Positions 2,793 to 23,675 are shown, counted from the stretch's first letter. The stretch is 24,908 nucleotides of DNA from Gammaproteobacteria bacterium (GCA_036381555.1 DASVCP010000330.1:1-24908), one strand, 5' to 3'. Translations and numbers: made by a program. Notes: generated by a model from the letters alone, not told the origin.

Positions 2793-2940
2793 TAACCACA
2801 GAGCACACAGAGAGCACTGAGAATAATTAAAAAAGGATTTAAGAACAAATTATATACTCGAATAAGCTTCGAGGATTTTTAATAATGTCTCTTACATACA
2901 GTCTTTTTTGGCTCTGTGTTCTCTATGCGCTCCGTGGTTA
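2793..2940. repeat. Palindromic intergenic cassette, CACGGAG-arm family, copy A (148 bp)
   Basis: Left arm 2793-2821 TAACCACAGAGCACACAGAGAGCACTGAG and right arm 2912-2940 are inverted repeats (24/29). The 90-nt interior is about 24% GC with a central CTCGAA/TTCGAG hairpin. Confidence 0.9.
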
Positions 2941-4068
2941 ATTTGAGATTGTAAGATTTGACTGTTGTTTGTGCAGGAACCAGCGGTTGATGATGAAGTG
3001 CCGGGCGAACCAGCGGCTGCGCATCAGCCTTGCGGCGACGCGTTGTTTGAGAGCGGGGGGCAGCAGGCCTCTTTTCGATTTCCTTGTCTCGGATCGCGGA
3101 CCGTAGCGTTCGATTATCTTCGCTTCGTACGTTTTCAGCGCCTTCAAACTGTAATCGCCCTGTAGCTGCAGAATGGTCTCGGCGGCCAGAATACCGGATT
3201 CGACCGCCGGTCGAATGCCTTCGCCGCTTTGTGGATAGGCCAGCCCCGCGGCATCGCCGATGAACATGACGCGTTCGCCGATCATGCGTCTGGGCGTATG
3301 ACCGTACAGCAGGTAGGCGTGGCCTTTGAACTTCTCGTCGATGTCGGGCGGAACTTTCCCGCGGCTCTTCAGAAACTCAAAGAAAGCATCGAGATGCGCG
3401 GGCAGATGGTGTTTGTCTTCTCTGCCCAGGCCAATGTTCAGGTATTCACCCTTGCGGAAGATCCAGCCGTAGCCCGTCAGATCCTTGCAGAAAAAGAGTT
3501 CCGGAATCTGTGAGTTCACGTTGCACTGCTGCATCTGCCGCGCACTCATTTGAAATTCGATTTCCCGGGCTGCTACTACCGATTCACCGTCCGTCCGTTT
3601 ACTGTCCAACGCTCGAACAACGGGACAGAAATGTCCGCCGGCGCCTATCAGTAACGTTGCATGATATTGACCGTTGATTACCCAGCCATTGCTGCCGCGT
3701 TCGAGGGTGTCCAGGGCTTCGTTCATGTGTAACCGCGCACCGCAACGGCGTAGGAGATAGTTGTCGAACTCGCAACGCCGGATACCGTAGCTGACGATTT
3801 CCGTGTAATCGGTGTCAACTGAAGGCTGCTCCATCATCGAGGTGCGAAAGCCGGTGATGGGTTGCAGCACGTGCCGTTCGGCATAGTTTTCCAGATCGAT
3901 TTGCAGCATGTGCATCACCGCCGGCGTAACCCAGCCGGCGCAGACCTTGTCGCGCGGGAAGTGCGCCTTATCCAGGATGGCAACGTCCAGGCCGCTGTTC
4001 CGCAACCGCCAGGCACACGAAGACCCCGCCGGACCGCCGCCTACAATCAACACGTCATAATGCTGCAT
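2938..4068 (-). CDS. FAD-dependent oxidoreductase, geranylgeranyl reductase family
   Basis: N-terminal Rossmann motif DVLIVGGGPAGS, GGR-family signature FPRDKVCAG, GYGWIF and GDAAG...GEGI motifs. Confidence 0.88.
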   Translation of the reverse strand: MQHYDVLIVGGGPAGSSCAWRLRNSGLDVAILDKAHFPRDKVCAGWVTPAVMHMLQIDLENYAERHVLQPITGFRTSMMEQPSVDTDYTEIVSYGIRRCEFDNYLLRRCGARLHMNEALDTLERGSNGWVINGQYHATLLIGAGGHFCPVVRALDSKRTDGESVVAAREIEFQMSARQMQQCNVNSQIPELFFCKDLTGYGWIFRKGEYLNIGLGREDKHHLPAHLDAFFEFLKSRGKVPPDIDEKFKGHAYLLYGHTPRRMIGERVMFIGDAAGLAYPQSGEGIRPAVESGILAAETILQLQGDYSLKALKTYEAKIIERYGPRSETRKSKRGLLPPALKQRVAARLMRSRWFARHFIINRWFLHKQQSNLTISN

Positions 4069-4089
4069 GGCTGACCTTTTATAAATATT

Positions 4090-4240
4090 TAACCACGGAG
4101 GACACGGAGCGCACAGAGTTTAAAACCGTTGAAAAAATTAATGTCAAAGAGACCTTAAAAAATACGGGAACATGTTGGAAGCATATAGCCCTTCACTTGG
4201 GTTCTTAACTTCTCTGTGATCTCCGTGTTCTCCGTGGTTA
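4090..4240. repeat. Palindromic intergenic cassette, CACGGAG-arm family, copy B (151 bp)
   Basis: Left arm 4090-4118 TAACCACGGAGGACACGGAGCGCACAGAG and right arm 4212-4240 are inverted repeats (26/29), around a 93-nt AT-rich interior. Confidence 0.92.
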
Positions 4241-4251
4241 GATTTGTTTTT

Positions 4252-5556
4252 TCATAAATACAAATGCTCGCGGTTCCAGGGGATATCGTTGTTGCGTTTG
4301 CGGGTGAAGACAACCTGGAACAGTTGCAACTCGCCGATGTGGAACGCGAGGATCGAGCCGGCCAGGTACAGCCGCCAGGCACGCAGGAAGTGCTCGTCGA
4401 ACATGTTTTCCACCTGCTCATGCGCCGTCTCGTAGCGGGACAGCCAGGCACTGAGGGTTTTTTCGTAATGCAGCCGCAGGTTTTCGAGGTCGAGTATTGA
4501 AAATTCGGCCTCTTCAAAGATTTGCATCATCTCGCTGATTGCGGGAGGACGCGCGCCGGGAAAAATGCGGCGTTCAATCCAGGAATTCATGGGTCTGGGC
4601 CGGTTGCGACCGATGGTGTGAATCAGGCCCCGGCCGTTGGGTTTAAGACAGCGGTCTATTAGTCCGCCGAGTTCCGGGTAATTCTCAACGCCGACATGTT
4701 CAAGCATGCCGACCGAGACGAATACATCGTATTGGCCGCTAATCGTGCGATAGTCATCTTCTATGTACTGTACCCGTTCCTGCAAGCCTTCCCGCAGAGC
4801 ACATTCACGGGCGAACTTAACCTGTTCACTTGAAATATTGTAAGCCTTGACAGTGACGCCGTAGTTTTTGGCCATGTAACGGGACAGGCCGCCCCAGCCG
4901 CAGCCGGCTTCCACGACAGTCTGACCGGGCCTGAGTTGTAGCTTGCGGCATATATGTTCCATCTTTGCCAGTTGAGCGTCTTCCAGGTTCATGCCCTCCC
5001 GCGGGAAGTAAGCGCAGGTATACTGCATTTCCTTGTCCAGCCAGAGCCGGTAGAAATCGTTGCCAATGTCGTAATGGTGGTGAATATTTTCCCGGGAGCC
5101 TTTGAGGGTGTTGCGCCTGGCGCGAGGCTTGGACAGTCGGAAACCGTTCCTGCCAGTTTCCCGCCAGGCGCTTCCAGCGCCGTTCTTTTCGTAAATTGCC
5201 AGCAAGAGCGTGAGCAGATCACCTTCAACCACATCGAGCAGCTTGTCGGTATAGCAATCGCCAAAATAACGTTCCGGGTTGCGAAGTACTTTGATCAGCG
5301 CCTGCCGGTTGTTGAAGCGAAGGCAGGCGCGTGGTTTTTGCACACAGGTGTGGATTTTTTCGCCGTTCCACAATTCGCAGGCAATTGGGGGATCGCCGAT
5401 GGCTTTGAGCATGCGTGTAAGCAGCCAGCGATCGATAGCCCCGGCTTTGATAGGGCGTGCTATAGGAGGTATTCTCTTCCCGGCGGACAAGCCTCTTCTT
5501 AAGCGGGCTTCCGAAGAGCTGCTGTACGACAGGCTGTCGGCCCGTGGTTCATGCAT
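4252..5556 (-). CDS. cfa: Cyclopropane-fatty-acyl-phospholipid synthase family SAM-dependent lipid methyltransferase
   Basis: Motifs HHYDIGNDFY, MQYTCAYF, EAGCGWGG, VSVGMLEHVG, IHTIG, IFPG and RAWRLYL. Start 5556 has a GGAG ribosome-binding site; the alternative is 5577. The symbol denotes family only. Confidence 0.88.
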   Translation of the reverse strand: MHEPRADSLSYSSSSEARLRRGLSAGKRIPPIARPIKAGAIDRWLLTRMLKAIGDPPIACELWNGEKIHTCVQKPRACLRFNNRQALIKVLRNPERYFGDCYTDKLLDVVEGDLLTLLLAIYEKNGAGSAWRETGRNGFRLSKPRARRNTLKGSRENIHHHYDIGNDFYRLWLDKEMQYTCAYFPREGMNLEDAQLAKMEHICRKLQLRPGQTVVEAGCGWGGLSRYMAKNYGVTVKAYNISSEQVKFARECALREGLQERVQYIEDDYRTISGQYDVFVSVGMLEHVGVENYPELGGLIDRCLKPNGRGLIHTIGRNRPRPMNSWIERRIFPGARPPAISEMMQIFEEAEFSILDLENLRLHYEKTLSAWLSRYETAHEQVENMFDEHFLRAWRLYLAGSILAFHIGELQLFQVVFTRKRNNDIPWNREHLYL

Positions 5557-5826
5557 GATTAAATTGTCTCCGTCCATGTATTTGCAGTTAGTGCTAATAG
5601 GGGCAGCGACTGGTTTTTCAAGTCAAAACTCGTTACCTTACTTGAACCCAGATTGTCTAGGTTATTGATATTTTAGTGCGAGGGCAAGCGGGTTTTGGCG
5701 TTAGAAATGCTGCGTGGTTTGGATAAACCGGGCCGCTAGACAATAGGACGCTCCTTCACGGGGGCGATCGACATGTAGACAACATTAACTACTGTTTGAG
5801 TTGTAACTTCTTAAAATATTTTCAGC

Positions 5827-6831
5827 ATGAAAAGTGTCGCCGACAAAATGCAAATTGTAGAGGTTGCAGGGGAGGGCGATATCGCCAGGTTAGTGCCCGC
5901 TACTCGTGCGCTACCGGTGCCGGAAACGGGCGAAGTACTTATCAAAGTGGAAGTCGCCGGCGTTAATCGCCCCGATGTTTTTCAGCGTCGCGGGCTTTAT
6001 CCGCCGCCTCGGGGTGCTACGGATATACCCGGACTGGAGGTGGCGGGACGTATCGTTGCGCTGGGTGACTCGGTATCACGATGGAAAGGTGGCGAGCGGG
6101 TTTGCGCGTTGTTGGCCGGCGGAGGGTACGCTGAATATGTTTCCGTACCTGCTGCCTTATGTTTGCCGGTACCGTCAACCTTGACAATGAAGGAAGCCGC
6201 GGCGATTCCGGAAACGTTCTGCACCGTCTGGTCCAATGTGTTCATGCGGGCGAAACTGAGAACCGGCGAGAACTTTCTGGTTCACGGCGGATCCGGCGGC
6301 ATTGGCACAACCGCCATACAACTGACGGCGGCTTTCGGCGCCAGGGTGTTTACATCCGCCGGCAGCGATGAGAAATGCCGCGCTTGTGAGCGGCTGGGGG
6401 CCGAGAAAGCCGTTAATTATCGCGATGAGGATTTTGTGGCCGTTTTTAAAGACGCGACTGATGGCTACGGTATGGACGTGATTCTCGATATGGTGGGGGG
6501 CTCTTATATCGGCCGTAACATCGAGTTGGCGGCTGTTGAGGGTCGTATTATGTTCATTGCGTTTTTGGAAGGCGCCAGGGCGGAAATCAATTTCAGCAGG
6601 CTGATGTTCAAGCGGCTGATGCTGGGCGGGTCGACTTTGAGGTCACGATCACTGGAGTTCAAAAGCAGGCTGATGCAGGATTTGTATCGCCATATCTGGC
6701 CCTTGTTCGAATCCGGCCAAGTAAAGCCGCAGGTGTCCGCTGAGTATCCGTTGCACGAAGCGCAACGGGCTCATGAATTGATGGAGGCGGGCGGACATTT
6801 CGGCAAAATCGTGTTGACCGTCGACGGATAA
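5827..6831 (+). CDS. NAD(P)H:quinone oxidoreductase, PIG3-like medium-chain reductase
   Basis: Motifs AGVNRPD...R.G.YPPP.GA..IPGLE, GGGYAEY, A.IPE.F.TVWSN, LVHGGSGGIGT and HFGKIVL. Confidence 0.92.
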   Translation: MKSVADKMQIVEVAGEGDIARLVPATRALPVPETGEVLIKVEVAGVNRPDVFQRRGLYPPPRGATDIPGLEVAGRIVALGDSVSRWKGGERVCALLAGGGYAEYVSVPAALCLPVPSTLTMKEAAAIPETFCTVWSNVFMRAKLRTGENFLVHGGSGGIGTTAIQLTAAFGARVFTSAGSDEKCRACERLGAEKAVNYRDEDFVAVFKDATDGYGMDVILDMVGGSYIGRNIELAAVEGRIMFIAFLEGARAEINFSRLMFKRLMLGGSTLRSRSLEFKSRLMQDLYRHIWPLFESGQVKPQVSAEYPLHEAQRAHELMEAGGHFGKIVLTVDG

Positions 6832-6877
6832 GGTATGCTTGAGAAGCGGAACCGGAATGGAAAACAGAGGGATTCGA

Positions 6878-8155
6878 ATGAACTTGAGTTTTAAAACAGC
6901 CGGATCACCGGATGCCGGAGGATTGAAGTCGCGCTACTTGCAGGTGCGGGCGGCCACCGAAGCTTTATGCGCCGGATTGCATCCGGAAGACACGGTCGCC
7001 CAGTCCATGGATGACGCCAGTCCGGTAAAATGGCACCTTGCGCACACCGGCTGGTTTTTTGAAGCGCTGGTGCTGGAGAAAGCGTTTGGCGGTTACCGGC
7101 ATTTTCGCGATGAGTACCGGGTGTTGTTCAATTCGTATTACAACAGCGTCGGCGAGCAGTATACGCGCCGCAACCGGGGATTGCTTACACGCCCGACCTT
7201 GCGGGAAGTTTATGAATATCGCCAGCATGTTGATCGGTGTATCTGCGATTTGTTGGACGGTTCGTCGGCGGACGGACTGGAAAGCGTCATCGAAGTGGGA
7301 TTGCACCACGAGCAGCAACACCAGGAACTGATCCTGACGGATATCAAGCATCTCTTTTCTTATAATCCCGCCTGTCCCGTGTTCCGGGAACAGGATCGGC
7401 AACCGCCGCAGTGTGAGTCGACTGAACCGCGCTGGCTGCCGTTTCCCGAGGGGTTGTATACGATCGGTCATGCCGGCGGGGATTTCGCTTTCGACAACGA
7501 AACGCCGGCGCACCGCGCCTGGCTGGCGTCATTCGAGTTGGCGTCCCGGCCGGTTACCAACAGGGAATACCTGGCGTTCATGACCGACGGCGGTTATCGG
7601 CGGCCGGAGTTGTGGCTGTCCGACGGTTGGGCCGTACTCCGGCAACAAAACTGGAACGCCCCGCTATACTGGCGGCAATGCAACGACACATGGGTTACGC
7701 TGACACTATCGGGGTTGCAGCCGGTGCGCGAGGATGAGCCAGTTGTGCATGTCAGTTACTACGAGGCGGATGCTTATGCCCGCTGGGCCGGCGCCCGCCT
7801 GCCGACGGAACAGGAATGGGAAGTCGCGGCGAAGAGCGCGCCGATCGAGGGTAACTTCGTCGAAAGCGGTTGGTTACACCCTGTGCCCGTAGCGCGGGAC
7901 GGCGACAACGTGCAACAGATATTCGGCGATGTTTGGGAATGGACGCAAAGCCCGTATGGTTCCTATCCCGGTTACCGCCCCTTGAACGGCGAACTGGCCG
8001 AATACAACGGCAAATTCATGTGCAACCAGATGGTATTGCGTGGCGGTTCGTGTGCGACACCGCTATCACATATTCGTCCCACCTATCGTAATTTTTTCCC
8101 GCCTCAGGCCCGCTGGCAGTTCAGTGGACTTCGATTGGCGCGTGATGCGCGATAA
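6878..8155 (+). CDS. egtB: Ergothioneine biosynthesis sulfoxide synthase EgtB (DinB-like plus FGE-sulfatase domains)
   Basis: Motifs SPVKWHLAHT.WFFE, iron ligands HHEQQHQE, FAFDNE.P.H, RLPTEQEWE, EYNGKFM and YRNFF. ATG at 6878 has a GAGGGA ribosome-binding site. Confidence 0.9.
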   Translation: MNLSFKTAGSPDAGGLKSRYLQVRAATEALCAGLHPEDTVAQSMDDASPVKWHLAHTGWFFEALVLEKAFGGYRHFRDEYRVLFNSYYNSVGEQYTRRNRGLLTRPTLREVYEYRQHVDRCICDLLDGSSADGLESVIEVGLHHEQQHQELILTDIKHLFSYNPACPVFREQDRQPPQCESTEPRWLPFPEGLYTIGHAGGDFAFDNETPAHRAWLASFELASRPVTNREYLAFMTDGGYRRPELWLSDGWAVLRQQNWNAPLYWRQCNDTWVTLTLSGLQPVREDEPVVHVSYYEADAYARWAGARLPTEQEWEVAAKSAPIEGNFVESGWLHPVPVARDGDNVQQIFGDVWEWTQSPYGSYPGYRPLNGELAEYNGKFMCNQMVLRGGSCATPLSHIRPTYRNFFPPQARWQFSGLRLARDAR

Positions 8156-8162
8156 CCCGGGC

Positions 8163-9152
8163 ATGGTGTTCGACCCTTCGCCATACTACTCCGGATTGGA
8201 ATTGATTGAAGGTAACGAAGCCTTCAATCGGTGGCGGAGTGGGTTGCCGGATCTGATCGCGCGGGAACTTGCGCCCGACAGGCATGGAAACTTTCCGGAA
8301 TGGCAGGACGTCTTGCGGGATTTGCCGCTATTGCCAACCACATGTATCGATTGTAACGCGGCGGCTGTGAAGGCCGGGGCGGCGTACCCTCCGGATCCGG
8401 CGGAAAATGCGAAGCTGGAACAGCGGTTGCGCCGGTTTATGCCATGGCGAAAAGGGCCGTTCGACATGCACGGGGTTTTTATCGACAGCGAATGGCGCTC
8501 CGATTGGAAGTGGGACCGCCTCAAGGACCATATTCAGCCGCTGCGGGACCGCCTGGTGCTGGATGTGGGCTGCGGCAACGGTTACCACTGCTGGCGGATG
8601 GCTGGCGCCGGGGCCCGGGCTGTGCTGGGCATCGATCCGACGGCGCTATATGTTATGCAATATCTGGCGGTCCAGCACTTTATACGTTCTTCCGGGGTGT
8701 TTGTTTTGCCGCTTGCCCTGGAAAGCCTGCCGCCCAACCTGCGCGCCTTTGATACGGTATTTTCCATGGGTGTCCTGTACCACCGCCGTTCACCTCTCGA
8801 CCATCTGCTGGATTTGCGCGGCTGCCTGGCGCCGGGCGGGGAGCTGGTGTTGGAGACTCTGGTCGTCGACGGGGGAGCAGGCGTCACCCTGATGCCCCGG
8901 AGCCGCTACGCCCGCATGCGGAATGTCTGGTTCATTCCATCATGTCCCACTCTGGAAATCTGGTTGCAACGTTGTGGTTTCACCGACATCCGTCTGGTCG
9001 ACGTGGCCGCCACCTCAATCATGGAACAGCGGGTCACTTCCTGGTCGGGCACCGCCTCGTTGCGGGACTTTCTCGACCCCCTTGATTCCAGCCGTACTGT
9101 GGAGGGTTATCCTGCCCCCAGACGGGCCATTTTCCTGGCGATCAGTTCTTAA
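8163..9152 (+). CDS. cmoB: tRNA 5-methoxyuridine(34)/uridine-5-oxyacetic acid(34) synthase CmoB
   Basis: Motifs PWRKGPF, IDSEWRSDWKWDR, VLDVGCGNGYH, FDTVFSMGVLYHRRSP, RYARMRNVWF and EGYPAP. The start is 8163 or 8145. Confidence 0.93.
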   Translation: MVFDPSPYYSGLELIEGNEAFNRWRSGLPDLIARELAPDRHGNFPEWQDVLRDLPLLPTTCIDCNAAAVKAGAAYPPDPAENAKLEQRLRRFMPWRKGPFDMHGVFIDSEWRSDWKWDRLKDHIQPLRDRLVLDVGCGNGYHCWRMAGAGARAVLGIDPTALYVMQYLAVQHFIRSSGVFVLPLALESLPPNLRAFDTVFSMGVLYHRRSPLDHLLDLRGCLAPGGELVLETLVVDGGAGVTLMPRSRYARMRNVWFIPSCPTLEIWLQRCGFTDIRLVDVAATSIMEQRVTSWSGTASLRDFLDPLDSSRTVEGYPAPRRAIFLAISS

Positions 9153-9363
9153 GCACGAACGGCTGATATTCAACCGGTTGATATTCCTAACAGTTTGTTT
9201 TTTCAAGATTTTTTTGGAAATTTCGAACTTCGGTCGCCGGGTCTTCTCATACCAATGGCTGATACCTATCTCGGGATAGTGCGGGTAGTATTCTTTCTCG
9301 GCCTCCTGTTAATGCAAATGGGGGCGGGTTCTGGGGGTAGCTAGGATGAGATATGGTGAGCTT

Positions 9364-9780
9364 ATGGCAAGCAAACAATCCATACAAAAGCAGGAGCAAA
9401 TATTAATTCAGGGATACGATGCCGTGTTGAAGCAGGTGGCCGAGACGACCACGGCGGTGAGCGAAGCCGGGTATTCCATTCGCATGGTTTTTAAGCCCAG
9501 AGTGCTGCGCGAAGCCACGGAAAACCTGGACGCCTGTGCGGAGCGTCTTCGCAAACTGGACCAGCGGTTGAGCAGCATCACCCGCCTGCAGGGAGATATT
9601 GACGGCAAATTGAGAGCAATAAGAACTTTCTCGACCTTGTTCGACAAGGGTAACGTTGCCTGCATATCCCTGTGTCAGGGTTACCGGGCCATTCATCAAC
9701 TCAAGAATCGTCAGAATCTTTACGTTATCCTTGGAATCGTCGTGTTGGTGATTGCAGGCACGATTTTCTCCCTGCTTTAA
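9364..9780 (+). CDS. Hypothetical protein, helical/coiled-coil with a C-terminal transmembrane segment
   Basis: Clean 138-144 aa ORF filling the intergenic gap, with a hydrophobic tail LYVILGIVVLVIAGTIFSLL. The alternative start is 9346. I recognise no family. Confidence 0.65.
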   Translation: MASKQSIQKQEQILIQGYDAVLKQVAETTTAVSEAGYSIRMVFKPRVLREATENLDACAERLRKLDQRLSSITRLQGDIDGKLRAIRTFSTLFDKGNVACISLCQGYRAIHQLKNRQNLYVILGIVVLVIAGTIFSLL

Positions 9781-9786
9781 TACAAC

Positions 9787-9952
9787 TAGAACCTATCTCA
9801 AAATGTCGCGAGCGCCGTGTGCAGCGCACGCGGTAGACCTCGGTGGAGGCAAAAATGTCCGGAAAAGCGGAGTTCACACGCTAGTAAATGAGCATTCTGA
9901 GGACATTTTTAACGATGTATCAGCAAGCGCAGCAATTTTGAGATAGGTTCTA
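9787..9952. mobile_element. MITE-like non-autonomous element with TA ends
   Basis: Perfect 18-bp terminal inverted repeat TAGAACCTATCTCAAAAT / ATTTTGAGATAGGTTCTA (16 bp plus flanking TA), and an internal 10-bp inverted repeat AAAAATGTCC/GGACATTTTT. There is no transposase ORF. Confidence 0.8.
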
Positions 9953-9957
9953 ACAAA

Positions 9958-10062
9958 AGTATGAAGTATATGAGTATTGAAGTATGAGTATGTGAGTTCA
10001 AAAGTAGCGATTGATCTTTCCCGGCTTGAATAACTCTCATACTCAAATACTTTTATACTTCA
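9958..10062. repeat. Palindromic element with AGTAT-based 6-8 nt subrepeat arms
   Basis: Left AGTATGAAGTATATGAGTATTGAAGTATGAGTATGTGAG; right CTCATACTCAAATACTTTTATACTTCA. Positions 9962-9988 and 10036-10062 pair at 23/27. Confidence 0.75.
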
Positions 10063-10063
10063 A

Positions 10064-10312
10064 TTACCGTTCCGTTTCGTTTTCCTCCGGCGTCAGCGCC
10101 TGGATCGACAGTGCGTGCAGGGCGCCGCTGGCAATGGCGTCATTCAGGGCGGCATAAATATTCTGGTGGCGTTTCACTTTGGACATGCCGGCAAACAGTT
10201 TACTGATAACCGTCACCCGGTACTTGTAACCGTCGCCGTTGACCTCGATCCAGGCGCCGGGAAACCGGGTTGACAGCCGGTTCTGGATATCTTCGTTGCT
10301 GATCGCTTCCAT
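10064..10312 (-). CDS. bolA: BolA/IbaG family protein
   Basis: 82 aa with GDGYKY..TVIS..F.G.SKVKRHQ.IY and LHALSI.A.TPEE. The symbol denotes family only. Confidence 0.92.
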   Translation of the reverse strand: MEAISNEDIQNRLSTRFPGAWIEVNGDGYKYRVTVISKLFAGMSKVKRHQNIYAALNDAIASGALHALSIQALTPEENETER

Positions 10313-10320
10313 AAAATTCC

Positions 10321-11208
10321 TTACGTTGGTGCTTTTACTGAGGGAATATCCGCTGAAGTCAGTTCCAGGCTTTCCTCAATACCGATAAACGTGGCGATTA
10401 ACGGCATGATCCGTTGAAAGAGCCCATTCAGTTCGTCGCTGTAGAGCAGGCCGCGGTCTATACCTTCTGTCCAACCATAAATCGAATTTTTCAGATCTTC
10501 GGCGGAATGTACGTGTCGACCGATATCGTGAAGAATTTTTTTATATTCGGAGTGAGTCGGGAAAACATTCAACTGCTGGAAAAGCTCGTGCAAACCGGCC
10601 ATTAAGGGTTCGGCTTCCGGTCCGAGTTGAAAGTCGACCGGCTTGAAAGGCGCATCCCGTAGCGAACCGGCTTTCACCCAGACTTTAAAGCTGTGTTTTT
10701 GCAGGGAGTGATACAGCGGTTCCTCCGAAATCAAAAACACCAGCAGATTTTTGCGATTGGCGTAAAACGCGGTGTCGCGGTAATGCCATTCGTGTTCGAT
10801 CAGAAACCGGTAGATCCGTATATGATCCTTAAAGTCGGCGGCCTGCAGTTGGTCGAGAATCAGGATGGTTTTATCGGCTTCACTGAAGGCACAGGCGTCG
10901 TTCATAATCCGGTCAAACAGGCCGGCGGGAGGTTCTTCCTTGCCGTTTTGCTCCTCGCCACCTGGGTTGACCGGTTTTGGGGCCGGCAGCGGTTCTTCCT
11001 GAGTGAAATCATGGTAAAGGATATGCACAGCGTCCATTGAATTGGCCAGGGCGTTGGCGAACGCGGTTTTACGGCGCCCGGGTTCGCCCTCCACGTTCAG
11101 GCAACGCAAAGCGGGGCCGGGAATGCTTTGCAGGCAGCGAACGATATAGTCGTAGCGCTCATTCGACTCGAAACCGTGTTCCGCCATTTTTTGCTGCAAA
11201 GTGATCAT
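10321..11208 (-). CDS. Degenerate AAA+ (MoxR/CoxD-like) protein
   Basis: P-loop-like LNVEGEPGRRKTAFANALA and Walker-B-like ILILDQ. The order of motifs matches CoxD-type MoxR ATPases. Confidence 0.65.
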   Translation of the reverse strand: MITLQQKMAEHGFESNERYDYIVRCLQSIPGPALRCLNVEGEPGRRKTAFANALANSMDAVHILYHDFTQEEPLPAPKPVNPGGEEQNGKEEPPAGLFDRIMNDACAFSEADKTILILDQLQAADFKDHIRIYRFLIEHEWHYRDTAFYANRKNLLVFLISEEPLYHSLQKHSFKVWVKAGSLRDAPFKPVDFQLGPEAEPLMAGLHELFQQLNVFPTHSEYKKILHDIGRHVHSAEDLKNSIYGWTEGIDRGLLYSDELNGLFQRIMPLIATFIGIEESLELTSADIPSVKAPT

Positions 11209-11236
11209 GTGCTTTTCCCTATCCCATATCGGCGGG

Positions 11237-11737
11237 TTACCAGCGATATTTATTCCACAGCTCCGGATTGGCCCAGTTTTTGGCGTTCAGCCAGTCAGGC
11301 ACGTTCTTGTAACTGAGAATATTGTATTCATAAAGGTGGCGACCGTCAGGATATGCCGCCAACTGTGTCATGCCGTAAGCAATCAGTTCGGCGTCTTGCC
11401 ACTTGCTTTGCACGCAATCCCCGGTTTGACCCGGATCAACAGCCACCAGCGCTAACAGGCGCCGGCTGTACAAATCGCGGAGCCGGGAAATAACGATTCC
11501 CGCCAGGGTTTTCTCCAGGTACTCGAGAGTGTTACACAAAACGGCGACATCGTGTTGACCCGAGGAAGCGATTTCCTCAAGCAGATCCCCGCCGTGTATG
11601 CGCCGGACTTTCCATTGCGGATGCTGGCGCAAATGTAAATCGAGGCTGTGCGGCTCCTTAAGATCGATCACCAGCAGGTTTTCCGGCGCAATTTCCTCGA
11701 TCAGTTGGACAATGTCTGTTTCGGCGGGATAAGGCAT
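11237..11737 (-). CDS. DUF6231-like protein (methyltransferase-like fold)
   Basis: The C-terminus YKNVPDWLNAKNWANPELWNKYRW matches the family's conserved tail as I recall it. DVAVLCNTLEYL resembles a class I methyltransferase motif. Confidence 0.75.
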   Translation of the reverse strand: MPYPAETDIVQLIEEIAPENLLVIDLKEPHSLDLHLRQHPQWKVRRIHGGDLLEEIASSGQHDVAVLCNTLEYLEKTLAGIVISRLRDLYSRRLLALVAVDPGQTGDCVQSKWQDAELIAYGMTQLAAYPDGRHLYEYNILSYKNVPDWLNAKNWANPELWNKYRW

Positions 11738-11889
11738 ATCATCAGCAGTAGCTTTTATGGGATGAAGAATAATTGTGCCATGTTTTAATGGAAACGGTTT
11801 ATTAACCGACGCTCAAAAAAGAGATTCCGGACGATTTTAAAGAGGTTTGTGTTTATAGTATGAAAAGTTATGGCGGGAAACCAAAGGTT

Positions 11890-12870: not shown

Positions 12871-12886
12871 AGGGGAGCACTGAAGG

Positions 12887-13642: not shown

Positions 13643-13649
13643 ATGTGAT

Positions 13650-14024: not shown

Positions 14025-14067
14025 GTGCTTTCATCCACGGTTAAGAGCCAACTCAAATCCTGATAAT

Positions 14068-14333
14068 CTCACGCAAAGGCGCGAAGGCGCAAAGGAAATA
14101 AAAAATGAGTTGCTATTCTATTCATGACTGCCGGAAATGAAGTGAAGAGCGCTCTGTGTGAAGGAAGGATACTTTAGGAATGATTAGATATGTATTCGAC
14201 AGGTAAGAAGATTTTGCTTCCTGGTTTTACCTTTCAATGCTCTGCCAGCTTTTAACCCTTCGCGACTTAGCGCCAACGTTCAGGGACGAACTAATGCCGC
14301 GTAGGCAGGAGCCGAGAGCGGTATTTGCGTGAG
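14068..14333. repeat. Palindromic intergenic cassette, CGCAAAG-arm variant, copy C (right arm interrupted)
   Basis: Left arm 14068-14095 is CTCACGCAAAGGCGCGAAGGCGCAAAGG. The right arm is split into 14257-14274 (15/18) and 14324-14333 (10/10) by a 49-bp insert. Confidence 0.82.
14275..14323. repeat. 49-bp insertion with a GGA-loop hairpin inside the right arm of copy C
   Basis: Removing 14275-14323 restores a contiguous 28-bp arm. The insert has ATGCCGC...GCGGTA(T) and GGC-AGGA-GCC stems. Confidence 0.65.
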
Positions 14334-14352
14334 GCCATTTTATAAATTCAGC

Positions 14353-15132: not shown

Positions 15133-15167
15133 AACGTCAGTAACGATGAAAAACCGGTGTGTTTTTC

Positions 15168-15342
15168 CTCGCGCTGAGACGCAGAGAAAGGAAGCTTTGT
15201 ACGTGATGGGCTAAATAAAGCCTGACCTTTGCTGACCGCGTTCCGGTCCGGGGCTGTTTTGCCTCTTGGAAACCGACCTGTCAGAGGCCTCTTTATTTTT
15301 CTAACTCTCATGGATGCCGGCGTCTCCGCGTCTCAGCGCGAG
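15168..15342. repeat. Palindromic intergenic cassette, CGCWGAG-arm variant, copy D (175 bp)
   Basis: Left arm 15168-15187 CTCGCGCTGAGACGCAGAGA and right arm 15323-15342 are inverted repeats (19/20). Confidence 0.82.
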
Positions 15343-15353
15343 ATAATGCTTTT

Positions 15354-15551
15354 TTAATAATGAGGCGGTTTTTCGTGTTTGGGGTCAATGTTCGAGTCAT
15401 ACATTTCCCGCAGATGCTGCTTGAACAACGCCAGTTGATTCTCCAGCGCGGTGATCTGCCGCTGTTGCTCAACAACCGCATTGTTCAACGTTTCGTGCGC
15501 CGCCTCCAGGTGGGCGAGCTTGATTTCCACTTCGGTCAGCCGGTCGTCCAT
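15354..15551 (-). CDS. slyX: SlyX family protein
   Basis: 65 aa coiled coil with RLTEVEIKLAH.E...E.LN..VVEQQ.QI and the C-terminal EKPPHY. Confidence 0.93.
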   Translation of the reverse strand: MDDRLTEVEIKLAHLEAAHETLNNAVVEQQRQITALENQLALFKQHLREMYDSNIDPKHEKPPHY

Positions 15552-16045
15552 CAGCGAAATGCAGGCAGGAAGCGATAGTGTATGTCACGCATGATGGCGG
15601 CCACCCATGGCCACAGGATCATGCTGATGAAGGACGGCATAAAGTAAATAAACAGGCTGGCCGGCGCACGGTTGGTGATACCGTAGATCCATAAAAACAG
15701 CAGTTGTTTTGCCAGCAGCACAAACATAACGATGATGCTTTGCTGGATGGGCGGATAAATCCGGAAGCGCTGATGGTTTTTCAGGATGATGAAAGTCAGC
15801 AAGGTCAACCCCAGGGCGTGCTGCCCCAGCAGGGTTCCCATGGCCACATCCAGCAGCAGTCCGAGTGCCAAGCCGGTGCCGAGGCCGGCATGGAACGGCA
15901 GCGCCATGCACCAGTATATGAGTATCAGCGACACCCAGTCCGGTCTGAACGGCTCCGCCCAGTCAGGTAGCGGGAAAATCATCAGCATCAGGCCGACCAG
16001 CAAAGAGAAGTGGATTACCCAAAAAATACGCAGCCGGTTATTCAT
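15551..16045 (-). CDS. mreD: Rod shape-determining protein MreD
   Basis: Motifs PLPDWAEPFRPDW..L..IYW, GLLLDVAMGTLLG.HAL and WPW. It follows mreC. The start is 16045; the ORF-track extension is spurious. Confidence 0.93.
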   Translation of the reverse strand: MNNRLRIFWVIHFSLLVGLMLMIFPLPDWAEPFRPDWVSLILIYWCMALPFHAGLGTGLALGLLLDVAMGTLLGQHALGLTLLTFIILKNHQRFRIYPPIQQSIIVMFVLLAKQLLFLWIYGITNRAPASLFIYFMPSFISMILWPWVAAIMRDIHYRFLPAFR

Positions 16046-16880
16046 GGTATTCCGGCTGTTGGTTGGGCCAGACCAGCAGTACTTCGCGGCTGCGATCCAG
16101 TTCGGCGGTGGGCGTGGCGGTAACTTTGGCGAAGGGTAATCCGGGCTGAATGACGACTTCGGCGATGACGGCAACCGGATAGTTGGGCGGAAAGCGCCCG
16201 CCCAGCCCCGACGAGATCAGCAGGTCGCCCGGCTTCAGGTCGGTATTGTTGGGAATATGCAGCAGGTCCAATTCGTTGGGGTTACCCTTTCCCTGGGAGA
16301 TGGTGCGCACACCGTTGCGATTATTTTGTACGGGCAGGGCGTGACTTGGGTCGGAAATCAACAGTACGTCGGCGGTGTATTGATAGACTTCAACGACTTG
16401 CCCCAAAACGCCTTTCGCATCAATCACGGGTTGCCCGGGGTATACATGGTGAACCTTGCCTTTATTGATCACGATCTGTTGCTTGTAGTAATCCTGGTCG
16501 ACCCGCACGACTTCCGCAATCAGAATATCTTCGCCAACCTGGGATGAGGCCCGTAACAGTTCCCGCAGCCGCGAATTTTCCTGTTGCAGGCTCAGCAACT
16601 TTAGTTGTTGCGCCTTCAGTTGCAGGTTTTCATCGTACAGGCGGGCGTTCTCCTCCATAATCGATTGATGAGCGGCCATGGAATTGCCGGACCATTCCAG
16701 GAACCGCGAGGGCAGGGAGACGATGTACTGCATGGGATAAACAAGATAGGAGCCAAGCGTGCTGCGAAAGCCTTTCAGCGCATCGTTGCGGTGATCGATG
16801 GTCATCAGCACAAGGCACAATACGCTGATGACAACCAGGCGAAATGTCAGGCTGAGGTTTTGTTGGAATAGCGACTGCAT
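16038..16880 (-). CDS. mreC: Rod shape-determining protein MreC
   Basis: N-terminal transmembrane segment, coiled coil ENSRLRELL, GVLGQV, and GDLLISSGLGGRFPPNYPVA. Confidence 0.95.
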   Translation of the reverse strand: MQSLFQQNLSLTFRLVVISVLCLVLMTIDHRNDALKGFRSTLGSYLVYPMQYIVSLPSRFLEWSGNSMAAHQSIMEENARLYDENLQLKAQQLKLLSLQQENSRLRELLRASSQVGEDILIAEVVRVDQDYYKQQIVINKGKVHHVYPGQPVIDAKGVLGQVVEVYQYTADVLLISDPSHALPVQNNRNGVRTISQGKGNPNELDLLHIPNNTDLKPGDLLISSGLGGRFPPNYPVAVIAEVVIQPGLPFAKVTATPTAELDRSREVLLVWPNQQPEYHE

Positions 16881-16907
16881 CGCTCCTCCGGCCCGCCCAG
16901 GCGGGGA

Positions 16908-18463
<1,556 letters not shown>

Positions 18464-18464
<1 letters not shown>

Positions 18465-19918
18465 TGCACGATAAAACATTGACCGAATTGGCCGCCGGGC
18501 TTCATGCCGGCGAATTCTCCAGTGTCGAGTTGACCCGGCATTTCCTGGATCGGATCAGGCGGTATAACCCCGATCTCAACAGTTTCATTACCGTCACCGA
18601 AGAGCGGGCCCTGGCGGCGGCAAAACAGGCCGATGAACGTCTGGCGCGCGGTGAAGCGGGACCCCTGGAAGGGCTGCCGGTCGCGCACAAAGATATTTTC
18701 TGTACGCAAGGCGTAAAGACCACTTGCGGCTCGCGAATGCTGGATAACTTCATTGCTCCTTACGAATCGACCGTTACCGCCAGAATGGCGGCGGCCGGCA
18801 TGATCACGCTTGGCAAAACCAATATGGACGAGTTCGCCATGGGCTCGTCGAACGAAACCAGCTATTACGGTCCGGTCAAAAACCCGTGGGACACCACACG
18901 CGTGCCCGGCGGCTCGTCCGGCGGTTCGGCCGCCGCGATGGCGGCGCGACTGGCGCCGGCCGCGACCGGCACGGATACCGGCGGTTCGATCCGACAACCC
19001 GCGGCGTTATGCAACGTGACCGGGTTGAAACCGACTTATGGCCGCGTATCCCGTTACGGCATGATCGCTTTCGCATCCAGTCTTGACCAGGCCGGCCCGA
19101 TGGCGGCCACCGCCGAAGACTGCGCCCTGCTGCTGAACGTTATGGCCGGCTTCGACGAGCGCGATTCCACTTCGGTGGACCGGCCGGTACCTGATTACAC
19201 GGCCGCGCTAAATAAGGACATTAAAGGGCTGAAGATCGGGTTGCCCAAACCGTTTTTTGACTCGGGTCTGGATTCGAAGGTCGCAAAAATCATTGGCGCC
19301 GTGATAGAGGAATACACGGGGGCCGGCGCGGAATTTATCGAAATCGATTTGCCGCATATGCACCTGTCCGTGCCGGTTTACTACGTGGTCGCGCCCGCCG
19401 AATGCTCGTCCAACCTGTCCCGTTTCGACGGCGTGCGTTACGGCTACCGGGCCGGGAATCCGAAAGACCTGGAAGACCTGTTCAAGCGCTCTCGCGGCGA
19501 AGGCTTCGGCGCCGAAGTGCAGCGGCGTATCATGATAGGTACTTACGCTTTATCCGCGGGCTACTACGACGCTTATTATAAGAAAGCCCAACAGGTCCGG
19601 CGGCTGATCGCCGACGACTTTAAGCGGGCTTTTGAACAGGTGGACGTAATCATGGGGCCGACCTCGCCGTCCACCGCGTTTAAAATCGGCGAAAAGGCCG
19701 ACGACCCGGTGGCGATGTATTTGTCAGATATCTACACCATCGCGGTGAACCTGGCGGGCCTGCCCGGCATCTCCATACCCGCCGGGATGGCCGACGGCCT
19801 GCCGGTCGGCGTGCAGATCATCGGCAACTACTTCGACGAAGCCCGTTTGCTCAACGTCGCGCACCAGTACCAGCAACGCACCGACTGGCACCGGCAGATG
19901 CCTGAAAGTTTTAAATAA
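18464..19918 (+). CDS. gatA: Asp-tRNA(Asn)/Glu-tRNA(Gln) amidotransferase subunit A
   Basis: Amidase signature [31 protein letters not shown] and [11 protein letters not shown]. It has a TGATG overlap with gatC. Confidence 0.98.
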
Positions 19919-19925
19919 AACCATT

Positions 19926-20079
19926 TAACCACGGAGGACACGGAGATCACTGAGAAAGAAAAGTAAAAGATCTTCAGGAAATGCTTAATGCCCGTGATTA
20001 TTTGCCGTTCTCGGATGAGCTTGATCTTTTGTTTAACGTAAATGTTTTTACTCTGTGAGCTCCGTGTCCTCCGTGGTTA
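19926..20079. repeat. Palindromic intergenic cassette, CACGGAG-arm family, copy E (154 bp)
   Basis: Left arm 19926-19954 TAACCACGGAGGACACGGAGATCACTGAG and right arm 20051-20079 are inverted repeats (27/29), around a 96-nt interior. Confidence 0.92.
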
Positions 20080-20103
20080 GAAAGCTTTTTTAAAGAGGTA
20101 AAA

Positions 20104-21540
20104 ATGGAATGGGAAACGGTTATCGGGCTTGAGGTTCATGCCCAGCTGGCCACCAAGAGCAAGATTTTCTCGGGGGCGCCGACGGCTTACGGCGCCGCGC
20201 CGAATACGCAGGCCTGCGCGGTCGACCTGGGGTTTCCCGGTGTGCTGCCCGTGCTGAACAAAGAAGCCGTGCGGATGGCGGCCAAGTTCGGGTTGGCGAT
20301 CGATGCGACGGTGGCCGAGACGTCCATTTTCGCCCGCAAAAATTACTTTTATCCCGACCTGCCCAAGGGTTACCAGATCTCACAGTACGAGCAGCCGGTG
20401 GTGGCCAACGGCCATCTCGACATCGAACTGGAAGACGGCGCCGTGAAGCGCATCAGGATTACCCGCGCGCACCTGGAAGAGGATGCCGGCAAATCGCTGC
20501 ACGAGGATTTCCACGGCATGAGCGGCATCGACTTGAACCGCGCCGGCACGCCTTTGCTGGAAATCGTCTCCGAACCCGATTTGCGCTCGGCCAAGGAAGC
20601 GGTGGCCTATCTGAAGAAACTGCATTCACTGGTGCGATACCTGGAGATTTGCGACGGTAACATGCAGGAAGGATCATTTCGCTGCGACGCCAACGTCTCG
20701 GTGCGGCCGAAAGGACAGGCGGAATTCGGTACGCGCGCCGAAATCAAGAACCTCAACTCGTTCCGGTTTGTCGAGAAAGCCATCAATTTCGAAGTCGAGC
20801 GGCAGATCGACCTGCTGGAGGGTGGCGGCAGGATCGTCCAGGAGACGCGGCTTTACGACGCCGACAAGGACGAAACCCGCTCCATGCGCACCAAGGAGGA
20901 AGCCAACGATTACCGTTATTTCCCCGATCCGGACTTGCTGCCGCTCAAACTGGACCGCGCGTTTATCGAGGACGTGCGTAAAACCCTGCCCGAACTGCCG
21001 GATGCGAAAAGGCAGCGTTTCCAGACCGAATACGGGTTGTCATCCTACGATGCCGGCGTACTGACCGCCAGTCGTGAAATGGCGGATTACTTTGAAATCG
21101 CAGTCAAAGCCGGTCAGGCGGAAGCGAAGCTGGTCGCCAACTGGGTGATCGGCGAACTGTCCGGAGCGCTCAACAAGGCAGGCCTCGAAATTGCGGCCAG
21201 CCCGATCGGTCCGGCACAACTGGCGCAGTTGCTTGACCGCATTGCGGACAACACCATTTCCGGCAAGATCGCCAAGGACGTCTTCGAGGCCATATGGCAG
21301 GGCGAGGGAAGCGCGGACGCGATTATCGACCGCAAAGGCCTGAAACAGATTACCGACAGCAGCGCAATCGAGCCGATTATCGACGAAATCATCGCCGCCA
21401 ATCCCGGCCAGGTCGAACAGTACCGGGCCGGAAAAGACAAGGTGTTCGGCTTTTTTGTTGGCCAGGTGATGAAAGCCACGCAGGGGAAGGCCAATCCGGG
21501 CCAGGTGAACGAACTGCTCAAACGGAAACTGCAAAAATGA
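20104..21540 (+). CDS. gatB: Asp-tRNA(Asn)/Glu-tRNA(Gln) amidotransferase subunit B
   Basis: Motifs [52 protein letters not shown] and [10 protein letters not shown]. Confidence 0.98.
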
Positions 21541-21638
21541 GGCGTTATACGCCTCGGTACCCTCGGGCGGGGCTTGTTCCCATCCGGGATGGCTTTGTGA
21601 TACCCTAGCCAGCCACCGAATTTAGCGGGGATACAAAA

Positions 21639-22067
21639 ATGCGCAAGGCTTCGGCCGCAGACCGGATAGAAGACGAATCCGATATCGATATGACACCCAT
21701 GCTCGACGTGGTGTTTATCATGTTGATTTTCTTCATTGTGACGGCCTCGTTTGTCAAAGAATTCGGCCTGGACATGAACAGCCCCGATGATAACAATGAG
21801 CCGCCTCCGACCCAGCAGGACAACACTATCCTGATACGCATCGAAGAAAGCGGCCGTATCTGGGTGGAAGACAGCCCGACCGACGTCGGCGGTATCCAGC
21901 CCAATGTCAAGCGCCTGCATGCCCAGAATCCGAAAGCCAAAGTGGTTATTCAACCGGATGCCAAGGCCAAGACTGACCTGATGATACAGGTGCTGGATCA
22001 ATCGCGCGCCGCGGGCGTGGATGCTTCGATTGCCCAGATCGTCCAGGAACTGGAGAATACGTTATAA
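21639..22067 (+). CDS. exbD: ExbD/TolR family biopolymer transport protein
   Basis: Motif IDMTPMLDVVFIMLIFFIVTASF, plus VVIQPD...T...IQVLD in the periplasmic domain. Confidence 0.92.
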   Translation: MRKASAADRIEDESDIDMTPMLDVVFIMLIFFIVTASFVKEFGLDMNSPDDNNEPPPTQQDNTILIRIEESGRIWVEDSPTDVGGIQPNVKRLHAQNPKAKVVIQPDAKAKTDLMIQVLDQSRAAGVDASIAQIVQELENTL

Positions 22068-22094
22068 CTTGGCTTTGTTTCGCCTCAGGTTCCA

Positions 22095-22127
22095 CAAAGA
22101 AGCCGGCCTCTGGGCCGGCTTTTTGTT
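22095..22127. terminator. Bidirectional intrinsic terminator between the convergent exbD and JAB genes
   Basis: AAGCCGGCC-TCTG-GGCCGGCTT stem-loop with a T tract on the right and an A-rich tract on the left. Confidence 0.85.
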
Positions 22128-22132
22128 GACCG

Positions 22133-22546
22133 CTAAACGGTAAGTGTGATCTCCCGCATCCCTTCGGCGGTCAGCCGAAATGCGCGCATTTCCAATACTC
22201 CCTTGGTGTTCAGGGAAATGATCAACTGGTAAGTATCCGGATAGCCGATGTTTTCCAGGTCACGCATCGATGGTTCGGCGGGACTGGCCGGGTGCGAATG
22301 GTAGATGGCGAACAGGTTTTCATGTTTGGTCCGCATGGTTTTCAGAGCGTGAATCTGGTCCTGCGGGTCCATCTCGAAAGCGTCTTCGGGACTGGCGGCG
22401 ACGTTTTTGACCGGGTACACCGTGCTCGGCCGGTCGCCGATCGCACCCACCAGCCCGCAAATCTCCCGTTCCGGCGACTGCTGCGCCAGCGCCAACAAGT
22501 GGGTCGCCAGAGGACGGGTGATTTTGATTTCCGATCTTGCCTGCAT
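22133..22546 (-). CDS. JAB/MPN (Mov34) metallopeptidase, CysO-cysteine peptidase-like
   Basis: N-terminal REICGLV glutamate and JAMM motif YHSHP.S...PS..D. The start is 22546 or 22573. Confidence 0.9.
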   Translation of the reverse strand: MQARSEIKITRPLATHLLALAQQSPEREICGLVGAIGDRPSTVYPVKNVAASPEDAFEMDPQDQIHALKTMRTKHENLFAIYHSHPASPAEPSMRDLENIGYPDTYQLIISLNTKGVLEMRAFRLTAEGMREITLTV

Positions 22547-22606
22547 AACAAACCCGGTTGAAAGGACGTGCATTAAACCAAAAAAACAAAAAAATCAAAA
22601 CCTAAT

Positions 22607-22759
22607 TAACCACGGAGGGCACGGAGAGCACAGAGGATAAAAACATTTAAAACTAAAAACAGTATATGCAAAGAGCTAAAAATTAATGAAAGTGGGAAAA
22701 AATTCCTAAAAGATCTTCAATTCATTTTTTCTCCGTGTTCTCCGTGCCCTCTGTGGTTA
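22607..22759. repeat. Palindromic cassette, CACGGAG-arm family, copy F (153 bp), overlapping the moeB 3' end
   Basis: Left arm 22607-22635 TAACCACGGAGGGCACGGAGAGCACAGAG and right arm 22731-22759 are inverted repeats (26/29), around a 95-nt A-rich interior. Confidence 0.92.
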
Positions 22760-23507
22760 AATTTTTTAAATCCCCGCAAACGGCACAGCCCGGGTCTTTG
22801 TTGAGTTTCAGGTTGCGCCATTGCAGGGTCGCGGCGTCCAGCAATAACAGACGGCTGTCGAGCGGTTCGCCGATACCGGTAATCAGTTTGATCGCTTCCA
22901 GCGCCTGCATGCTGCCGATGATCCCCACCAGCGGACCGATGACGCCCACATCGCTGCAACGTTCGCCGACGTCGGTCGCGTCAGGATAAAGGCAGGCGTA
23001 GCACGGGCTGCGGGGCGTGTTGTTGAAGACGGCGATCTGGCCTTCCAGACGGATGGCCGCGCCCGAGATCAACGGCTTGCCTTTATCGACGCAGGCCTGG
23101 TTGACAGCGTAACGCGTGGCGAAGTTGTCCGTGCAATCCAGGACGATATCCACGCCGTCGATTGCCGTGACGATATGGTCAACCGTGATCTTTTTATCGA
23201 GGCTGTGAATTAGCAGGGTCCGGTTGATTTCCTGCAAGCGCCCGGCGGCAGCCGCGGTTTTTTTATGACCGAGATCGTGATCGTCGTACAGTATTTGCCG
23301 ATGCAGGTTGGAGAGGGCGACCCGGTCGAAGTCGGCCAGCGTCAGCTCGCCGATGCCCGCCGCCGCCAGGTAGATGGCCGCCGGTGAACCCAACCCGCCG
23401 AGCCCGACGATCATCACATGCGCATCGCGCAACGCTTCCTGGCCTTCGTAACCGAAGTCCGGCAGCACCATCTGGCGCGTATAACGATTAAGCGTTTCGT
23501 CGTCCAC
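22722..23507 (-). CDS. moeB: MoeB/ThiF family adenylyltransferase (E1-like)
   Basis: Motifs RYTRQ, GLGGLGS, DFD.V..SNLHRQ, DCTDNF, zinc motifs CYAC and CAVC, and the catalytic Cys in ERCSDVG. GTG start. Confidence 0.92.
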   Translation of the reverse strand: MDDETLNRYTRQMVLPDFGYEGQEALRDAHVMIVGLGGLGSPAAIYLAAAGIGELTLADFDRVALSNLHRQILYDDHDLGHKKTAAAAGRLQEINRTLLIHSLDKKITVDHIVTAIDGVDIVLDCTDNFATRYAVNQACVDKGKPLISGAAIRLEGQIAVFNNTPRSPCYACLYPDATDVGERCSDVGVIGPLVGIIGSMQALEAIKLITGIGEPLDSRLLLLDAATLQWRNLKLNKDPGCAVCGDLKNLTTEGTENTEKK

Positions 23508-23525
23508 TTGTTTCTAACTGATATT

Positions 23526-23675
23526 TAGCCACGGAACCCACGGAAAAACACGGAAGATAGGAAGGTTTAATAAAACGTTTAGCTTTATCTTTTACTTTAG
23601 CAAATCGAGCATGATAATGAATAATCATGTTTTACTATAAACAATTTCCATGTTTTTCCGTGGGTTCCGTGGCTA
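23526..23675. repeat. Palindromic intergenic cassette, CACGGAA-arm variant, copy G (150 bp)
   Basis: Left arm 23526-23555 TAGCCACGGAACCCACGGAAAAACACGGAA and right arm 23646-23675 are inverted repeats (29/30), around a 90-nt AT-rich interior. Confidence 0.92.

Follow-up and report, generated by a model that had tools for sequence, protein, structure and literature searches.

Palindromic elements with heptamer-array arms in a gammaproteobacterial genome: probable gene-less members of a GxxExxY nuclease cassette family

The DNA considered here, hereafter the window, is a contig of 24,908 nucleotides (nt) from a gammaproteobacterium (GCA_036381555.1, DASVCP010000330.1:1-24908; contig C330 of genome G000), the assembly of which comprises 3.58 Mb in 563 contigs, is 84% complete and has a GC content of 0.55. 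Through repeat finding and direct reading, five palindromic elements with inverted arms were identified in the window (copies A, B, E, F and G). All five sit between protein-coding open reading frames (ORFs), where they tightly fill the intergenic gaps: one occupies the space between gatA and gatB, and moeB and a cfa-like gene each have a copy on either side. The arms have a common layout, TAAC and then three heptamers spaced with a period of 9 nt, the heptamers being CACGGAG, CACAGAG or CACTGAG in copies A, B, E and F, and CACGGAA in copy G. The arms enclose interiors of 90, 93, 96, 95 and 90 nt (in the order A, B, E, F, G), lengths that had been reported in a preliminary description of this DNA and that proved exact on re-measurement. 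The GC contents of the interiors are, in the same order, 0.24, 0.33, 0.33, 0.22 and 0.26, against 0.55 for the genome, and the earlier figure of about 24% for copy A is therefore confirmed. It is well supported that these copies belong to a family of cassettes in which arms of the same kind bracket a gene for a GxxExxY nuclease. The elements are laid out as follows (a strand is given where one was assigned).

2793-2940, copy A, whole element: arms plus 90-nt interior
2793-2821, plus strand, copy A left arm: TAAC followed by CACAGAG, CACAGAG and CACTGAG at a 9-nt period
2822-2911, copy A interior: 90 nt, GC 0.24, the sole window interior to fold significantly by itself (z -3.17)
2912-2940, minus strand, copy A right arm: one heptamer is degenerate (CTCTATG); overlaps the stop of the cfa-like ORF (2938-4068, minus strand)
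4090-4240, copy B: arms 4090-4118 and 4212-4240; interior 4119-4211, 93 nt, GC 0.33, fold z +0.21; located between two co-directional minus-strand genes
19926-20079, copy E: arms 19926-19954 and 20051-20079; interior 19955-20050, 96 nt, GC 0.33; gatA stop (19918) on one side and gatB start (20104) on the other
22607-22759, copy F: arms 22607-22635 and 22731-22759; interior 22636-22730, 95 nt, GC 0.22; downstream of moeB (minus strand)
23526-23675, copy G: CACGGAA arms 23526-23555 and 23646-23675, complementary at 29 of 30 positions; interior 23556-23645, 90 nt, GC 0.26

The same arms are found around protein-coding genes. At three loci (L033, L053 and L099) they flank genes of 123-154 codons whose products match both TIGR04256 (GxxExxY) and PF13366 (PDDEXK_3), with E values of 1e-39 to 1e-44. 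Genome G000 itself has four GxxExxY matches: the gene at C95:5307-5744 lies between perfect arms of the CACGGAA type, which is the type seen in copy G, and the gene on contig C197 lies among several CACGGAG arms. At the latter locus (L131:1240-2420) the left side has three arms in tandem, with GTTAAAAGAYYAAATTCAAAAAA after each; a minus-strand GxxExxY gene comes next, and then several right arms that are interleaved with another repeat. When 31 GxxExxY loci were sampled from G000 and its class, 30 were found to be bracketed by inverted arrays of three to four C[AG]CN[AG]A[AGT] units, which occur in many dialects, and the cassettes mostly span approximately 430-620 nt. The GxxExxY protein is modelled with high confidence (mean predicted local distance difference test score, pLDDT, 96.8) as a minimal PD-(D/E)XK nuclease of approximately 120 amino acids in full-length members; the nearest folds are those of Cas4, lambda-exonuclease, MGME1 and archaeal Hjc, and residues D69, E79 and K81 are conserved. 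To our knowledge, no biochemistry exists for GxxExxY. A literature search found no published description of the element, and the family, with approximately 130 gene-less copies in this one soil genome, is apparently unpublished.

The window copies share with these cassettes arms of at least three tandem units, an arm type that also surrounds TIGR04256/PF13366 genes, and variable occupancy at orthologous sites; neither a nuclease gene nor a remnant of one lies between their arms, and they are hence classed as gene-less derivatives. Variable occupancy is best seen between gatA and gatB, where an orthologous series runs from an empty site to a mini element and a full cassette: the spacer is empty and approximately 35 nt long in the related genomes G036, G038 and G006, it holds the 154-nt copy E in G000 and an element of approximately 100 nt with a 36-nt interior in G005, and it is occupied by a full GxxExxY cassette in both G004 and G010. 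The sites of copies F and G are empty in G005. Among contigs of four soil sequencing runs, the interior of copy E is the same in independent samples, and exact-protein look-ups of the neighbouring genes returned no other assemblies.

Taken together, we consider it probable that the five window elements belong to the heptamer-armed GxxExxY cassette family as miniature forms without a gene, with interiors that are filler of no measured length and arms that are recognised in trans. Full-length members carry one GxxExxY nuclease gene (TIGR04256/PF13366) between heptamer-array arms, and internal deletion in such gene-bearing cassettes would yield the gene-less copies, whose middles may subsequently have drifted to AT-rich sequence, received nested insertions, or both. 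In single-stranded DNA or in RNA, pairing of the arms could give a 25-31-bp stem. They may be retained because a protein reads the heptamers, and this reader would most economically be the nuclease of the family itself, provided in trans by the four G000 copies that bear the gene; the role of the nuclease towards the arms is thus one that we infer. A deletion of this kind is preserved in G004, where a gene-less copy with a 122-nt interior (C28:126177-126348) adjoins a full cassette. Over approximately its first 75 nt, this interior is approximately 88% identical (by eye) to the 3' terminus of the full cassette beside it, a stretch that takes in the final 14 codons of the gene (...NHRLLKDGVRRYKL*), and judged on this identity the copy is clearly an internal-deletion derivative.

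Several observations weigh against this interpretation. No GxxExxY remnant was detected by tblastn or hidden Markov model (HMM) in the 129 short elements of G000 relative to shuffled controls, so a deletion origin is seen only in a relative and we infer it for the window copies. The short elements were searched by tblastn with four-helix-bundle as well as GxxExxY proteins, and with HMMs built from the complete GxxExxY protein and from its C-terminus; nothing rose above the shuffled controls. In addition, a gene encoding a four-helix-bundle protein (TIGR02436, S23p-like) lies between inverted arms that follow the same design with CAGAAT-type units (L134:1445-2114, on contig C341 of G000), with a second, partial copy beside it, which means that the nuclease may be cargo rather than an enzyme that acts on the arms. 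Arms of the CACGGAA type are nearly identical (2.9% divergence per site) and yet hold interiors of 27-188 nt that are unrelated to one another, a pattern that copy-and-paste from one master would not predict. The four CACGGAG copies of the window are more uniform in interior length than random draws would be (P ~0.002-0.003 that four random draws share a 7-nt range), and interior length in the CACGGAG type as a whole has a floor at approximately 72 nt. Finally, no movement between strains was seen in the soil-run contigs, which are short and few. A global alignment of copy G with the C95 cassette was unconvincing, as only ATCATGTTTWAC beside one arm is common to the two.

The arm consensus in G000 was drawn from 196 examples; in the family, each arm is an array of three heptamers of the general form C[AG]CN[AG]A[AGT], with a period of 8-10 nt. 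Among 119 arms of the CACGGAG type, the heptamer sites diverge by 4.0% and the 2-nt spacers by 43%, a tenfold difference that sets the constrained heptamers apart from the free spacers, and there is no covariation of the kind that pairing would impose. The spacer match between the two arms of a copy was 0.41, 0.49, 0.44 and 0.29, as opposed to 0.40, 0.48, 0.51 and 0.37 for shuffled pairings; arm covariation is therefore rejected at the spacer positions. Likewise, A/G differences between arms exhibit no strand preference for G-U over A-C (60 versus 59). Judging from these comparisons, it is the heptamer sequence that is conserved, beyond mere pairing, and low heptamer divergence without spacer covariation points to a heptamer-reading protein and to sequence-specific recognition. 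The heptamer is not of the CsrA type (CANGGANG), nor is it Shine-Dalgarno-like: the dialects CGCAAAG, CACAGAG, CGCCAAG and CAGAAT are without GGA or GGAG. The element ends are conserved as TAAC...GTTA with outer AAAA/TTTT flanks, although a target preference could look the same; no clear target-site duplication was seen at the elements, and no transposase was found to be associated with them. The exact arm pattern is present in at least 117 contigs from Acidobacteria, Verrucomicrobia, Planctomycetes, Spirochaetes, Chloroflexi, Burkholderiales and others, and also in replicons of cultured Gemmatirosa, Pseudoalteromonas and Bacteroides. Arms in the replicons of isolates and in independent sequencing runs exclude an assembly artefact.

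Selection on the arms might alternatively operate at the RNA level, by analogy with known excised stems: transcribed stems within operons would be cut by RNase III, thereby uncoupling or stabilising the neighbouring mRNAs, and the interior would serve only as a loop. This is compatible with the family assignment made above, but as an account of the elements we regard it as unlikely. In its favour, the whole of copy E is predicted to fold at -66.5 kcal/mol (z -7.06), the median distance between an element and the adjacent stop codon is 14 nt, elements often sit between co-directional genes, and RNase III excises the AT-rich intervening sequence (IVS) of the Coxiella 23S rRNA, whose ends form a 28-bp stem (PMC4990558). 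Against it stand the arm comparisons, in which the spacer positions fail to covary and A/G differences fail to favour G-U, together with the conservation across phyla of the heptamer sequence and not only of its pairing.

Arms of the CACGGAA type raise a further question, given that their divergence of 2.9% per site includes the spacers whilst the DNA that they enclose is unrelated. The remaining candidates for this contrast between arm and interior are renewal of the arms in place, use of the hairpin loop as a landing pad, and strong selection on every arm position. Arms might be kept or renewed in place, for instance through cutting by GxxExxY and repair templated from other copies, such that nuclease and repeats would together form a new kind of system, with family inheritance confined to the ends; this would explain near-identical arms around unrelated DNA of any length, and we hold it to be a possible though doubtful course of events. 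Somewhat less likely still is that the mobile unit is a minimal hairpin, into the loop of which the gene, REP-like (repetitive extragenic palindromic) modules, other elements or AT-rich DNA were inserted later. The unrelated DNA within CACGGAA arms would fit such a landing pad, as would the four cases in which these arms enclose whole elements of the CACNGAG type, and many copies in other phyla are bare hairpins. In G010, moreover, elements with CACAGAG arms have GC-rich, mosaic interiors assembled from REP-like palindromic modules that recur among copies (L177-L195). Most interiors of approximately 90 nt are, however, unique in their genome (54 of 67 interiors in G000 have no match elsewhere in it) and so are not known mobile modules; heptamer words are not in excess within interiors (4 versus 3.6 expected); and the G004 copy described above clearly arose by deletion and not by insertion into a loop. 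An onion-like nesting, in which a whole CACNGAG-type element or its remnant lies inside CACGGAA arms, was observed at C556:18623-18866 of G000 and also on contigs C191, C63 and C308.

The near-constant interior length in the window had led to the suggestion in the preliminary description that a length ruler acts on variable content. The genome-wide lengths do not bear this out, being widely spread and skewed to the right of a mode near 95 nt. G000 has 196 strict arms and, by an arm HMM, approximately 130 paired elements, of which 66 clean elements of the CACGGAG type with two strong arms constitute the length set. Their interiors range from 72 to 306 nt (median 109.5 nt, interquartile range 95-140 nt), with a mode at approximately 93-99 nt, a floor at approximately 72 nt and a skew to the right; only 12 of the 66 fall between 90 and 96 nt, and interiors are 30% GC compared with 55% for the genome. 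The 14 gene-less interiors of the CACGGAA type measure 27, 38, 44, 58, 83, 90, 90, 98, 103, 111, 145, 150, 159 and 188 nt. Interiors longer than approximately 180 nt usually carry other genome repeats or whole nested elements of a sister dialect. Relatives of the same family carry the same arms, with no matches in a reversed-pattern control, and their length ranges depend on lineage:

G010: 208 strict arms, interiors of 78-236 nt
G005: 44 strict arms, interiors of 14-90 nt
G004: 31 strict arms, interiors of 78-138 nt

In other phyla, paired arms span 65-960 nt and enclose anything from a short loop up to a gene. It is therefore well supported that there is no length ruler and that the 90-96 nt of the window falls at the mode of a wide distribution that differs between lineages. 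The window is unusually tight, but it lies on the mode of a skewed distribution; the choice of a striking pattern is the one explanation that we can offer for the tightness. A true preference for an AT-rich functional spacer of approximately 90-100 nt, acting for example as a melting segment for cruciform extrusion or as a loop of fixed size around a protein, is improbable. It would accommodate the mode at 93-99 nt and the floor at 72 nt in the CACGGAG type, the confinement of all window copies to 90-96 nt (P ~0.002-0.003), the interiors of 30% GC inside a genome of 55% GC, and a 90-nt interior in one G005 element as well. It would sit poorly with an interquartile range of 95-140 nt and a tail reaching 306 nt, with the spread of 27-188 nt between the near-identical arms of the CACGGAA type, with the ranges in G005 (14-90 nt) and G010 (78-236 nt, with GC-rich interiors of REP-like modules), and with the short loops on which the same arms close in other phyla, where totals are 65-100 nt.

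The content of the interiors is no more uniform than their length. No interior of the window matched another by BLAST, none matched the rest of the genome, and an all-versus-all BLAST across the genome yielded mostly singletons. The view that the interiors are unrelated apart from one 13-mer holds for the central cores, in which local scores over all pairs averaged 8.45 compared with 8.15 for shuffled sequences, with 1.1% of them above the 99th percentile of the shuffled scores. The 10-20 nt nearest each arm are an exception, as strand-specific subterminal motifs occur there at a fixed position: TTAAAAGATT is present in 19 of 132 interior halves (1.8 expected) and TTAAAAGATTTTTATGTTAAA in 9 (0.2 expected), and the 13-mer in question, TAAAAACATTTA, which adjoins the arm at the same position in copies E and F, is itself one of these motifs. 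For approximately 30 nt inward from each arm the sequence is A-rich and C-poor, and a mirrored A-to-T gradient runs across the interior. The inverted-repeat consensus thus continues weakly for 10-20 nt inside the arms, whilst the middle is free. The idea that the interiors are degenerate extensions of a hairpin is borne out to this extent, in that a consensus runs inward through some 8-20 A/T-rich nt, but there is no copy-specific pairing beyond that due to base composition.

Self-complementarity within the interiors proved to be weak. The inverted sub-repeats that had been named (CTCGAA/TTCGAG, AAAAGATC/GATCTTTT and GTTTA../..TAAAC) are all present, and copy A does fold better than its shuffled controls (interior-only z -3.17); it is alone in doing so, with copy G at -1.41, copies B, E and F at +0.2 to +0.5 and a genome-wide mean of -0.77. 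When left halves were compared with the reverse complements of right halves, there was no within-copy excess (8.11 within copies, 8.29 between copies, p = 0.68). ORFs are absent from the interiors, the small reading frames that begin near the arms having a median length of 10.5 codons, and a scan of the interiors for promoters and terminators found no enrichment (3 promoter-like sites versus 2.4 expected). The interiors are, in sum, non-coding, AT-rich, unique and unconstrained filler. That they are spacer-like or guide-like segments captured from foreign DNA, as had also been proposed, is close to refuted and extremely improbable, for although each copy holds unique content between conserved repeats, searches against phages, plasmids and self sequence return only matches to the arms or the moeB gene and chance AT-rich interior matches with E values of at least 0.1, the elements are dispersed singly between housekeeping genes and form no arrays, interior length varies from 27 to 306 nt, the mirrored A/T gradient and a subterminal motif are shared between copies, and Rfam at gathering thresholds reports no family in the window; a CRISPR-like spacer system is rejected on the same dispersal, the same range of lengths and the same lack of foreign matches. 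No new measuring or capture mechanism is indicated, as a ruler on captured content fails.

Comparison with known systems reveals partial likenesses only. Small GIY-YIG single-stranded DNA nucleases of the Ssn/NTS system are flanked by hairpin repeats that they cut (PMC11893778), and this is the closest counterpart in the literature to a small nuclease with its own repeat on either side. In both cases the repeat that surrounds a small nuclease gene also exists in many gene-less copies, and in both the association extends across phyla; unlike Ssn, the protein here has a PD-(D/E)XK fold, and the repeats are heptamer arrays around a long interior instead of a 30-bp hairpin. One of the REP-like modules of G010 (GTCATTCCGGAAAGCGC...GGAATCTCC) resembles the NTS/SRM motif described in the same paper. 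The 23S rRNA intervening sequences that carry an S23p ORF in Coxiella and Leptospira (PMC4990558) are of similar size, at 428-444 nt compared with mostly approximately 430-620 nt for the cassettes here. They share with the cassettes terminal inverted repeats with a stem of approximately 28 bp, a single small ORF, a composition richer in AT than that of the host and a sporadic distribution, and the TIGR02436 gene of G000 has arms of the same design. Unlike an IVS, the elements described here lie between protein-coding genes and not in helix 9, 25 or 45 of the 23S rRNA, the window copies have no ORF, and a PD-(D/E)XK nuclease is what the family usually carries; the build of the arms from tandem heptamers may be a further difference. 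An identity as 23S rRNA intervening sequences is excluded, all five copies being located between protein-coding ORFs.

As in REP/REPIN-RAYT systems, short palindromic repeats are dispersed in hundreds of intergenic copies that are mostly gene-less, and a single-copy gene is flanked by the repeats. The gene here nevertheless encodes a GxxExxY nuclease and not a Y1 transposase, and the arms are triple heptamer arrays approximately 90 nt apart and not REP doublets. None of the three Y1_Tnp (PF01797) genes of G000 has arms near it, and a REP/REPIN-RAYT identity was rejected on that ground. Miniature inverted-repeat transposable elements (MITEs) such as Correia of Neisseria and ERIC of enterobacteria are likewise approximately 150 bp in length, have terminal inverted repeats, are intergenic, can occur within operons and form long RNA hairpins. 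MITE copies share their whole sequence, whereas here only the ends are shared, and no transposase is known for the family; a MITE amplified recently from a master copy is rejected because interiors are mostly singletons in the all-versus-all BLAST and their cores are no more similar than shuffled sequence.

The elements are of relevance to annotation, since such repeats fragment metagenome assemblies, sit in essential operons and supply the last codons of some genes. In the window, copy A shares its outermost bases with the stop codon of the cfa-like ORF (2938-2940), and a moeB-like ORF (22722-23507, minus strand) runs through the right arm of copy F (22722-22759) and stops at the inner edge of that arm. 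The insertions consequently supply the last codons of both genes. Contigs of the probable source run, X1, end at arms at window positions 4089, 22634, 22729 and 23554, and the repeats therefore probably contribute to the division of the assembly into 563 pieces.

Other palindromes of related build are found in the window. Two more elements surround a small gene, at 14072-14340 and 15168-15342, and are made of CGCAAAG/CGCGAAG and CGCTGAG/CGCAGAG units with an 8-nt period; units of the CGCAAAG and CGCAGAG types also bracket GxxExxY genes in other genomes. The first of the two holds a nested repeat of approximately 78 nt at 14259-14335, which is 91% identical to part of the interior at C117:960-1234. 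A further palindrome, at 9958-10062, consists of tandem (G)AGTAT units with their complement opposite, and is of the same design with an unrelated unit.

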